64,000 nt of DNA, taken from the sequence record PV730299.1. The stretch is one strand, 5' to 3'. A program made the position numbers and the translations under genes. Shown here piece after piece: positions 61,072 to 64,000 of this stretch (position 1 is its first letter; each line of letters begins with the position of its first letter). The notes beneath the pieces were generated by a model, which saw only the letters and a list, made by a program, of their open reading frames with translations, was not told the origin of the DNA and did not search any database. The stretch comes from a phage.

Positions 61072-63090
61072 TTAGAACACAACTTTCACAGTGCGGTTGA
61101 ACGAACCGCTCACCTTCACGAACACGTGGTTACGTTGGGTGGTAGAGAAGCCCAGACCGGACAGCTGCTCAGTGCTTGGCTGTACTTTAATCTTACCACC
61201 TAACATTTCAAAAACCTTGCGGTGTTTATCAAGTTCCGGCTTCAGATATTCGTTATAGAAACCACGGGTGCCGACAGGGTTAGCACAACCTTCCAGGATG
61301 AAGAACACGTGCTTGTTGCCCGTCTGCTCGCCGTCCCAATGGTTTGGTGAGTTCAGAACCAGCTGTACCTTCTGGAAGACGGAGGTCTTGATGCCCCAGA
61401 TTTCCTGAGAGCGAGCGTCGTCTTTCAGGGTAGAACTGATGTCAACCACCTGACCAGCGCGAACCTGAACCACAACAGCCAACGTGCGATCTTTGTTACC
61501 CAAGCCAGGGTGTGAGAAGCGCTTAGTCTGACCTTTGTATTCAACTTCGATTTCGAAACCAACGTCACAGGTTTCACGCTTGTTGAAGTTGGTGACATAG
61601 AACTCATAATTCCCGTCGCGCAGCTTGCTTTCATCGCTAAAGAAGATGTTCTCCACCGGACGGCGGTTTGGATCAATGCCGTCCATACCGTTCATGTCGA
61701 TGTCCAGAGTTGCGCCAGTTGACGAACGACGGTTGCGAAAATATACGTGGTTGTGAAGAGGATCGTTCATGCTCAGATCCAGGTCGTCGTTGTTATGCCA
61801 AGCCAGTGACACACGGAGGAAACTGTCGACATTACCACCTGCGGTCTTCACGCGCTCTTTGATGGAGTCGGCCACTTCGCCATTGTACGACCAGCTGAAG
61901 CCGTTGTTCCACTTGAACAGGTTAGGAGCGCCTGCGGTGGCCGGAGCGATCAGGGACATCAGGTTGCCAATGTGAGAGTTTTCGACCAGCACTTCCAGGG
62001 AATGCGCCTTTGGCAACACGTTTGTCAGGAAGTCGTCGATCGTGATCTCTTCAACCTTGTCCAGGGACTTGGTCGGAGTCTTCACTTCAGACGCCAGCTG
62101 AGCAAACGGGTCCATCTTCTTCTGAGCTGCCAGATCGGCGAACAGAACGTTGTTGATGGTCAGATCGTCATACACGGCATAACGGCGACCCAGTGAATCA
62201 GTCAGACCCAGCGCTTCGACTTCTTTCTGCGCGTTTTCAATCATCGACTTCGTGACCAGCGCGGTTGGGCGCTTGTAGTTCGTCGGAGCGACTTTGGCTT
62301 CAAAGGACTTCACGGCGGTTTCCAGATCCCGGCCTTCATTGAGGTCTACCAGCAGAGAGCCAATCACGGTATTACGAATGCCGTGAGGGGTATGACCGTT
62401 TGCACGGTAGCCAGTGCGCCAAGCCCACAGAGCGCGTTTCTCTTCTGCAGTTTGTTCGTACATGGTCTTGTTCACCACGAACGCCTGCACTGCCGCTTTG
62501 TGCTCTTCACCGCGATACAGAGAATTCTGGTCAATCAATTCCAGAACGATTTCAGCCGATTCCAGAGACAGTTCACGCAGGCCGCGCTCAAACACTTCAA
62601 TCGCCTGGCGGATTTCACCCTTCTTAGAAGCGATGGTATCTGCCCGCAGAACATAGCTGCCCAGCAGGTCGGTGTGGAAGTGGTTGTAGGTGCGGACAAT
62701 ACCATCTTTCATTTCGTGATTCGACTCAACACCAACTTTCTTGGTGTCGTTGAAGTACACGTCGACGATTGCGTGCTGCTTAACATACGCTGACAGCGCC
62801 GCAGCGACAACGTCGTATTCGTTACCCAGCTGAATGTTATCCCAGATAGAGATCACGTTCAGGTCGGCGTCGATGGTGACCACACCGCCGATGTTACGGA
62901 TGAATTGTTTACAGCAGGTGCAGTCGTGCTCGGTACGCTCACGGTAGAGCGGGTTGGTACCAGCAGGAAAAGAAGACAGATACAGATCCCACAGAGCATC
63001 TTTATCGATGTTGGTCATGAACAGACCAGTTGCTGACATGGCTAGCACGTTGTTGTTAACAGCTACTGCGAAGGGCTTAAATTCTGACAT
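61072..63090 (-). CDS. large hypothetical protein with N-terminal Cys motif
   Basis: 672 aa; HDCTCC motif near N-terminus; AGGAAGACTACACC-ATG initiation motif; no family recognised. Confidence 0.55.
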   Translation of the reverse strand: MSEFKPFAVAVNNNVLAMSATGLFMTNIDKDALWDLYLSSFPAGTNPLYRERTEHDCTCCKQFIRNIGGVVTIDADLNVISIWDNIQLGNEYDVVAAALSAYVKQHAIVDVYFNDTKKVGVESNHEMKDGIVRTYNHFHTDLLGSYVLRADTIASKKGEIRQAIEVFERGLRELSLESAEIVLELIDQNSLYRGEEHKAAVQAFVVNKTMYEQTAEEKRALWAWRTGYRANGHTPHGIRNTVIGSLLVDLNEGRDLETAVKSFEAKVAPTNYKRPTALVTKSMIENAQKEVEALGLTDSLGRRYAVYDDLTINNVLFADLAAQKKMDPFAQLASEVKTPTKSLDKVEEITIDDFLTNVLPKAHSLEVLVENSHIGNLMSLIAPATAGAPNLFKWNNGFSWSYNGEVADSIKERVKTAGGNVDSFLRVSLAWHNNDDLDLSMNDPLHNHVYFRNRRSSTGATLDIDMNGMDGIDPNRRPVENIFFSDESKLRDGNYEFYVTNFNKRETCDVGFEIEVEYKGQTKRFSHPGLGNKDRTLAVVVQVRAGQVVDISSTLKDDARSQEIWGIKTSVFQKVQLVLNSPNHWDGEQTGNKHVFFILEGCANPVGTRGFYNEYLKPELDKHRKVFEMLGGKIKVQPSTEQLSGLGFSTTQRNHVFVKVSGSFNRTVKVVF

Positions 63091-63209
63091 GGTGTAGTCT
63101 TCCTGTTTCAGTTCAAATGTGCGCCCCGTTTGCCAGGGCGCTTCGTTTAAGTGAGGTCAATAATACGTTGAAAAGAGTTATTGAAGAACGAAGTAAAGGG
63201 AATCTTTAT

Positions 63210-63434
63210 TCAGACGATCTTACCGCCGTCACAAGGCCGAGTATCACCGGAGTTGTATGCCAACATCCCCTGCATCAACAAACGTCTTGGCCCAGAAACT
63301 GATTTCTGTTTCCTCAACGTACTACAAAACCGAGTAGTGCCTGGGTAAGGAGTGTACACGAGACGTCCTTCCATACGGGCTTTCAGAAGAAACTCATCAG
63401 TCGCTTTACGCAGTTTGAACAATTTCCAGCTCAT
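63210..63434 (-). CDS. hypothetical basic protein
   Basis: 74-aa ORF directly downstream of the NUMOD3-containing ORF. Confidence 0.3.
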   Translation of the reverse strand: MSWKLFKLRKATDEFLLKARMEGRLVYTPYPGTTRFCSTLRKQKSVSGPRRLLMQGMLAYNSGDTRPCDGGKIV

Positions 63435-64000
63435 TTCTCACCCTTGTATCTTTTTAACCATTTGACGCATTTTAATGGTTCCCACCCTTTATTGAAACGT
63501 TCGATTATCCCACTGGTGGCATTAAACGCCTTCAGATCTTTTGTTCCGTACACATGCATGAGGGCTTCTGAACGTTTCATCGTTTTCAGGGCTTCAAGGA
63601 ATTGATCAGCTTTCTCCCAATATACGTCATTGTCGGGGTTCCATTTACCCTTCTCCCAAGGCATCTTAGCCAACATGCCTTTCTGAGCGTTTTCTTTCTG
63701 TTTGGCGCGTTGCTCTGGTGTGAATGAGTTGGTTAAGTCCTTCCCATAATTGGGATTGAGTTCCCCCAGTTTAGCTTTCCTGGCACATTCAGAAAATTGT
63801 TCTAAATCCATGTTGGCGCGGCGTTTCTCTAAAACCCGCCTTTTATATTCAGGATCAGAAGCCATCCTTTCATGGATTTTCATCAATCCTTTGGTAATTT
63901 TCTTGACTTGCTCTGGGGTTCTCTTATACCCATATTGGGGATTATTCTTTCCTCTTCTCCCATACATTGGGTTGTCTTTACCCACAAACCGAGAAACCCC
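63431..64000 (-). mobile_element. homing endonuclease-like gene, C-terminal NUMOD3 DNA-binding region (N-terminus beyond window edge)
   Basis: Tandem NUMOD3-like motifs (GKDNPMYGRRGKNNPQYGYKRTPEQ) typical of GIY-YIG/HNH homing endonuclease DNA-binding domains; reading frame continues to window end; catalytic domain not visible. Confidence 0.45.

Follow-up and report, generated by a model that had tools for sequence, protein, structure and literature searches.

The window analyzed here is a stretch of 64,000 nucleotides from the phage sequence record PV730299.1, and it ends inside a gene for a free-standing homing endonuclease. The 3′ part of this gene lies on the minus strand at positions 63431–64000 (189 codons plus stop) and encodes a NUMOD3 linker and a C-terminal helical domain. 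Its TGA stop codon occupies 63431–63433, the frame continues to base 64000 without meeting an upstream stop, and the product begins at the window edge with GVSRFVGKDNPMYGRRGKNNPQYGYKRTPEQ. A preliminary description of the window had placed tandem NUMOD3 motifs in this region, and they are indeed present: two tandem cores, NPMYGRRGKNNPQYG, span 63929–63973 on the minus strand (NPMYG at 63959–63973, NPQYG at 63929–63943), and a third core, NPNYG, lies in frame with them at 63743–63757. The third core marks the start of a tail module shared with F-LimVI, an endonuclease of the Dickeya phage LIMEstone1 considered below; together with a compact helical domain it makes up a predicted C-terminal DNA-binding module (63431–63775, minus strand).

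Against the Pfam NUMOD3 family (PF07460), the fragment scored 26.0 bits over two stretches (E = 8.8e-6; gathering cut-off, 20.4 bits). A loose regular expression for the NUMOD3 core matched three times in a single frame, inside a 231-base stretch of the endonuclease fragment. Outside it, all six frames of the other 63.8 kb held just two scattered matches, and 100 shuffles of the window gave on average 0.8 matches per 64 kb. The motif cluster is thus confirmed as real, correctly placed, and far above chance. In the PHROGs database, the fragment was assigned to phrog_655, "homing endonuclease" (E = 8e-21); a search of NCBIfam returned no match, and no paralogs of the gene were found elsewhere in the window. 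Residues G199, N202, and P203 of the third core were invariant in all 14 homologs compared. The linker form KGVSRFVGKDNPMYGRRGKNNPQYG was present in five of the seven homologs with an HNH head (P0001–P0007) and absent from the two with a GIY-YIG head (P0008 and P0009). Taken with the comparisons below, these features identify the fragment, very probably, as the 3′-terminal two-thirds of a gene that encodes a MobE-like HNH homing endonuclease and has spread by homing in a ViI-like phage.

The last 24 kb of the window match Ackermannviridae (ViI-like) phages, with Escherichia phages AV101 (97.0% identity at 99% query coverage) and LHE287 (97.8% at 94%) as the best matches and none of the records identical; the window phage is an Escherichia coli phage of the Ackermannviridae, ViI-like and of the Aglimvirinae type. 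Read along the window's minus strand, the gene order in its relatives is clamp loader, regA, a MazG-like gene, a gene for a protein of ∼400 amino acids (aa), a variable slot, and a gene for a 672-aa protein. The ∼400-aa protein, encoded just beyond the window, is a 5-hydroxymethyldeoxyuridine (5-hmdU) DNA kinase (Pfam PF18723, E = 3e-79 to 3e-81). We examined 15 occupied loci, seven from GenBank/IMG-VR and eight from same-lineage contigs retrieved by an exact-match look-up of a 74-aa protein encoded next to the fragment. In all 15, the endonuclease gene is intergenic, between the 5-hmdU DNA kinase gene and either the 74-aa or the 672-aa gene, that is, free-standing.

Full-length orthologs and the HNH head

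The orthologous open reading frame (ORF) comprises 307 to 309 aa in phages AV101, RPN242, PMBT18, Det7, and phiD3, and the full-length ortholog falls in phrog_655 (E = 7e-61), in line with the earlier reading that the fragment is the tail with which a free-standing homing endonuclease binds DNA. The eight contigs are 97 to 98% identical to the last 3.5 to 4.7 kb of the window, backbone and cassette together, and the protein encoded by each has 309 aa and an intact HNH block; the full 307- to 309-aa HNH form was likewise found in 7/7 GenBank/IMG-VR loci. The fragment is 98% identical to the full-length homolog P0001 and agrees with the ortholog of one contig (L033) at 188 of 189 residues. At residue 72 of the fragment (63785–63787, minus strand) the window has a Cys (…EQFSECARKAK…) where 15/15 orthologs have an Arg, a private substitution.

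Because the gene is on the minus strand, its N-terminus lies beyond position 64000, where the catalytic domain had been expected. The 120 residues upstream of the fragment carry an HNH-type motif, ELHHILPKS...NL..L..RQH...H, at all 15 occupied loci, and the ortholog's N-terminus carries ELHHILPKS...NLVRLTGRQHYLVH; the window's own 5′ part would be expected to encode MFYELL...ELHHILPKS...NLVRLTGRQHYLVH. Residues E35, H37, H38, N54, H63, and H67 were invariant among 11 homologs; the His ... Asn ... His pattern of a His-Me finger nuclease is present in the full-length orthologs. Residues 16 to 90 matched phrog_12434, "HNH endonuclease" (E = 3e-17), and the HNH block was 39% identical over 56 residues to the HNH region of T4 MobE (pairwise E = 2e-12). 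It also aligned with the residues of homolog P0010 that pass the Pfam HNH model (25.7 bits; cut-off, 21.4). In the PDB, a profile of the family matched only two chains, both weakly. They belong to the pyocin AP41 DNase (E = 0.42) and a group II intron maturase (E = 0.029), and in each case an HNH domain aligns at the motif. A PDB sequence search with the full-length ortholog gave spurious matches only (SMC, cyclophilin), Foldseek with the full model gave no significant match in the PDB, and no Pfam HNH call was obtained in the ortholog subfamily; since Pfam and Foldseek were silent here, the HNH assignment rests mainly on sequence evidence. Neither a GIY-YIG motif nor a matching Pfam domain was found in the HNH-type orthologs. 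Of the two nuclease classes named in the preliminary description, HNH therefore stood at the 15 occupied loci and GIY-YIG did not, although the ambiguity was reasonable, since Dickeya phages carry at the same site a gene with the same tail and a GIY-YIG head. The relatives thus support the view that the missing 120-aa N-terminus, encoded by ∼360 nt beyond the window, would be a MobE-like HNH nuclease.

The protein is predicted to be modular, with an HNH (beta-beta-alpha-metal) head of ∼90 aa, a linker with tandem NUMOD3 motifs, a third NUMOD3 motif, and a C-terminal helical domain. The NUMOD3 linker was modeled at low confidence, as expected of an extended DNA-tracking segment, and the C-terminal domain gave weak helix-turn-helix (HTH)-like fold matches. 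The segment that joins the HNH head to the first NUMOD3 motif (endonuclease residues ∼75–130) occurs in two allelic versions, …FPNSDMVYAVLLMSRGGRYT…KGVSKCVGANNPMYG in loci L028, L034, L003, and L006 and …FPNTRMVYAVVAMRKGGRRN…KGVSRFVGKDNPMYG in L004, L027, L029–L033, and the window. The shuffling of these alleles among near-identical genes indicates probable recombination inside the endonuclease gene.

Ratios of nonsynonymous to synonymous substitution rates (dN/dS) were 0.07 to 0.23 for the fragment against its orthologs and 0.07 to 0.26 across both head and tail, which argues that the endonuclease protein is probably maintained by purifying selection. Such strong selection, together with the HTH-like fold matches, could also be expected of a domesticated sequence-specific DNA-binding protein that represses transcription or excludes the markers of rival phages and for which homing has become secondary; precedents are the T4 intron endonucleases, which also act as autorepressors, and the marker exclusion caused by homing endonucleases (PMC2988022). 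We consider domestication very unlikely, however: nothing in the locus indicates a regulatory target, and the patchy occurrence of the gene (93 of ∼290 related records) is what selfish elements typically show, not a domesticated core function.

The start of the gene is preceded by a leader of ∼60 nt, nearly identical in the seven GenBank/IMG-VR occupied loci, with a predicted hairpin in which GGAG and the start-codon AU are base-paired (ΔG, −26.3 kcal/mol; z, −5.0; no shuffled sequence was as stable). The only variation was one A-to-G change that keeps a G·U pair. At locus L004 (6161–6200, minus strand), the hairpin reads AUAACAGGAACU-loop-AGUUCCUGUUAU and ends in the endonuclease AUG; it is nearly identical across three genera, with equivalents, all outside the window, at L001, L003, L005, L006, L014, and L016. 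For the window copy, the hairpin AACAGGAACT...AGTTCCTGTT and a kinase tail ending in QPKATTSGSKNLLNLFKK before the stop codon would be expected upstream of the HNH head. The leader hairpin appears to match the type that sequesters a ribosome-binding site (RBS), as known from I-TevI/II/III, segB, and Aeh1 mobE (PMC2988022). A candidate T4-type late promoter just 5′ of the hairpin was rejected, as TATATTAT differs from TATAAATA at three of eight positions. Scans of 62900–64000 for sigma-70 promoters and intrinsic terminators gave results at or below chance.

Empty sites, flanking tracts, and the kinase tail

Phage LHE287 matches the window at 98% identity as far as position 63213 and from there runs straight into the kinase gene, so that it presents an empty site. 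Homology to this site ends at 63213, and the in-window part of the acquired, donor-type cassette accordingly spans 63214–64000. In AV101, a cassette of 1,284 bp stands in place of 92 bp of the empty site. The left junction, CTTTATTCAG (63204–63213), is common to the empty, endonuclease-only, and endonuclease-plus-74-aa states, and three different ORFs have their stop codons there. LHE287 and many other phages are 96 to 98% identical to the backbone and lack the sequence from 63214 onwards; the comparison proposed in the preliminary description for presence/absence polymorphism thus came out as expected. The adjacent backbone matches 263 to 291 phage records and the endonuclease gene just 93.

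The Salmonella phage PMBT18 was 60 to 88% identical to the window per 200-bp bin in the backbone and 95 to 100% identical at 63200–64000. We took as informative those positions at which LHE287 and PMBT18 differ. By this measure, the window is of the E. coli-phage type up to ∼62900, mixed at 62900–63200, and entirely of the donor (Salmonella-phage) type thereafter. The patchy co-conversion tract (62900–63213) thus consists of donor alleles scattered through the intergenic region and the adjoining 5′ end of the 672-aa gene, both otherwise of the E. coli-phage type; a single isolated donor-type site also lies near 62690, within the E. coli-type stretch. On the far side of the cassette, the AV101 kinase gene is of the donor type over its last ∼300 bp, and that of RPN242 is mostly so at its 3′ end, with interruptions and an extra donor patch further upstream. 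Donor-allele tracts of ∼300 bp therefore flank the cassette on both sides. A recent acquisition of the cassette by this phage lineage, probably from Salmonella-phage relatives, is well supported by these comparisons. The recent mobility that had been proposed from the motifs is thus borne out by presence and absence among near-identical phages, by a cassette nearer to another genus than its backbone is, and by the co-conversion tracts.

The kinase gene itself differs with occupancy. Among 25 loci classified, the kinase ends in ...QPKA(T)TSGSKNLLNLFKK in 7/7 loci with the HNH gene and in 0/18 without it, counts that refer to phylogenetically related loci and not to independent events. Unoccupied sites have the tail ...YKKRCDEVVLKRGSVNLLDRLKK(PE), and the F-LimVI genome has a third. 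The linkage holds in Kuttervirus, in Limestonevirus, and in the E. coli lineage. At unoccupied loci, conservation of the kinase 3′ end, the presumed target, did not exceed that of the remainder of the gene.

I-HmuI of phage SPO1 is an intron-encoded HNH nicking endonuclease with an HNH head and an extended DNA-binding region. T4 MobE is a strand-specific nicking HNH enzyme that has its target in the adjacent gene, co-converts flanking sequence, and supports homing in trans (PMC2790892). By analogy with these two enzymes, we propose that, in a cell co-infected by a relative without the gene, the tail would bind the unoccupied allele of that relative at or near the 3′ end of its 5-hmdU DNA kinase gene, where the HNH head would introduce a nick or a cut. 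With the carrier genome as template, recombinational repair would next transfer the cassette, and a few hundred base pairs of flanking DNA would be co-converted with it. The cassette would comprise a replacement kinase 3′ end, the hairpin leader, the endonuclease gene, and, in this lineage, the 74-aa ORF, and the replacement kinase tail may make the carrier immune to its own enzyme.

The same slot is differently filled elsewhere. In one relative, it holds a 135-aa zinc-ribbon ORF (phrog_16119; L015, 5203–5610) next to yet another kinase tail allele, and in an Erwinia-phage-like contig it holds ∼1.4 kb of small ORFs (L025, 5237–6584). The slot after the kinase gene is apparently a hotspot for accessory genes in the Ackermannviridae. 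Since these unrelated inserts, and the 74-aa ORF standing alone, fit a general recombination hotspot, and since every junction falls on a short shared sequence, the cassette could conceivably be a passenger with a relic enzyme no longer active in homing, spread by ordinary homologous recombination among co-infecting Ackermannviridae. We consider this improbable. Purifying selection acts on the nuclease head as well as on the tail (dN/dS, 0.07–0.26), and the catalytic His/Asn/His residues are invariant; the strict linkage with the kinase tail and the short flanking conversion tracts are specific signatures of homing, and the cassette has crossed genus boundaries with an identity far above that of the backbone.

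The 74-aa ORF (phrog_19743; 63210–63434, minus strand) adjoins the endonuclease gene, its ATG overlapping the endonuclease stop codon (ATGA). A Pfam search gave no match for it, its dN/dS was 0.02 to 0.23, and a homolog in Serratia phage phiMAM1 (52% identical) is annotated as "putative transcriptional regulator-HTH domain". In Klebsiella phage Menlow, the ORF is native, directly after the kinase gene and with no endonuclease; Klebsiella Taipeivirus phages likewise have it without the endonuclease. The E. coli sister phages LHE287 and RPN242 do not have it. Given that it is native in Menlow in this form, the ORF thus entered the window lineage as a hitch-hiker of the endonuclease gene.

On the other side lies the conserved 672-aa gene (phrog_1735; 61072–63090, minus strand), whose product has a precomputed Pfam DUF8224 match in relatives and is labeled "putative DNA-directed RNA polymerase" in some records; a look-up of the window's own 672-aa protein gave no exact match. 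Within it, identity drops at 61400–61700 to 86 to 92% with AV101 and 60 to 74% with Kuttervirus, which suggests another small, putative recombination patch. The intergenic region upstream of its start (63090) contains a G+C-rich conserved hairpin, GCGCCC-loop-GGGCGC, at 63121–63141, which the terminator scan did not call because it has no T-run. In the IMG/VR relatives L010 and L011, the loop is reverse-complemented (CTAAATG versus CATTTAG) and the stem is kept.

Two heads at one site and known homing systems

F-LimVI of LIMEstone1 occupies the same slot, directly after the 5-hmdU DNA kinase gene. Over its last ∼330 nt (the C-terminal ∼110 aa) it is 95% identical to the HNH-type genes at the nucleotide level, with no homology upstream; its N-terminal ∼150 aa are unrelated and GIY-YIG-like, the tandem NPMYGRRGKNNPQYG linker is missing, and the kinase-tail allele differs again. 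It has been published as a free-standing GIY-YIG endonuclease (PMC3296691). Its Pfam GIY-YIG scores fell below the cut-offs (20–22 versus 25 bits and 16.4 versus 22.6), and comparison with I-TevI and SegG gave no significant similarity of the head; the GIY-YIG label consequently rests on sub-threshold Pfam scores and the published annotation. The breakpoint of the head swap, at KLGELNPNYGKD, is sharp when F-LimVI (L007, 5001–5786) is compared with the phiD3 gene (L006, 4008–4931) and with window positions 63431–63775. One tail at one site in one phage species thus carries an HNH head in phiD3 and a GIY-YIG-like head in LIMEstone1.

Because F-LimVI shares the tail at the same site (PMC3296691, Table 1), the final ∼345 nt of the gene do not by themselves reveal which head it carries, and the window copy might in principle bear a GIY-YIG head of the F-LimVI type. 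The window, however, reaches 225 nt upstream of the swap breakpoint, and this stretch (GVSRFVGKDNPMYGRRGKNNPQYGYKRTPEQVKK...) is identical to the HNH-type linker and unrelated to F-LimVI, for which reason we regard a GIY-YIG head as extremely unlikely. The HNH head in all eight same-lineage contigs speaks against it as well.

More tentatively, the slot behind the kinase gene could be a contested homing site at which one tail has recently been recombined onto two unrelated heads, each linked to its own "immune" kinase-tail allele; we put this forward as a possibility that we rate as rather doubtful. If the tail sets the target, HNH and GIY-YIG enzymes would compete for one site on hypermodified (5-hmdU-derived) DNA. 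Were this true, nature would here have set up a test of head-swapping and of how hypermodified thymidines are handled by homing enzymes. For engineering or studying modular homing endonucleases, the head swap beside a DNA-hypermodification gene offers a modestly useful lead.

Among known systems, T4 MobE, encoded between nrdA and nrdB, offers the closest parallels. Both genes are free-standing within a T4-like replication and nucleotide-metabolism cluster, with a modular layout of head, linker, and tail, an expected target in the neighboring conserved gene, co-conversion of the flanks, and a neighbor mobilized in trans (the I-TevIII intron for MobE, PMC2790892; the 74-aa ORF here). Unlike the window gene product, T4 MobE, at 141 aa, has neither the C-terminal domain nor the long NUMOD3 linker. 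Only the HNH head aligns (residues 31–86), with no similarity in the rest, and we therefore speak of a MobE-like head and not of a MobE ortholog. T4 MobE also has another insertion site and other neighbors and is translationally coupled to nrdA, whereas the window-type gene has its own leader with a putative RBS-sequestering hairpin and in this respect is nearer to Aeh1 mobE (PMC2988022). Nicking activity has been shown for T4 MobE; the window gene is known from sequence. With I-HmuI, the gene shares a two-domain extended architecture in which an HNH head is linked to DNA-binding modules, a likeness that is architectural only; sequence and fold searches with the ortholog recovered no match to I-HmuI.

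Orthologs at the same locus in other Ackermannviridae, 84 to 97% identical to the window fragment at the nucleotide level, are already annotated: Det7 gp37 as "HNH endonuclease domain protein, T4 MobE-like", those of Se_EM4, SeF6a, PM10, and SJ3 as "homing endonuclease", and that of phiD3 as "NUMOD3 motif family protein". They reside in other backbones (Kuttervirus, Limestonevirus), whereas the window backbone is of the E. coli Aglimvirinae type, most sequenced relatives of which lack the gene. With orthologs annotated as homing endonucleases in GenBank, the finding is already known and ordinary; a literature search found no paper with a title or abstract on this particular locus. The Ackermannviridae are rich in homing endonuclease genes, with 14 in LIMEstone1 (PMC3296691).

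For annotation, the window ends within a selfish mobile gene. Its last ∼790 bases, including the 74-aa ORF, are a recent import and not part of the lineage backbone, which matters for the phylogeny and synteny of phages that are candidates for therapy. For the family, the locus would represent a clean but unsurprising case of free-standing endonuclease homing in the Ackermannviridae.
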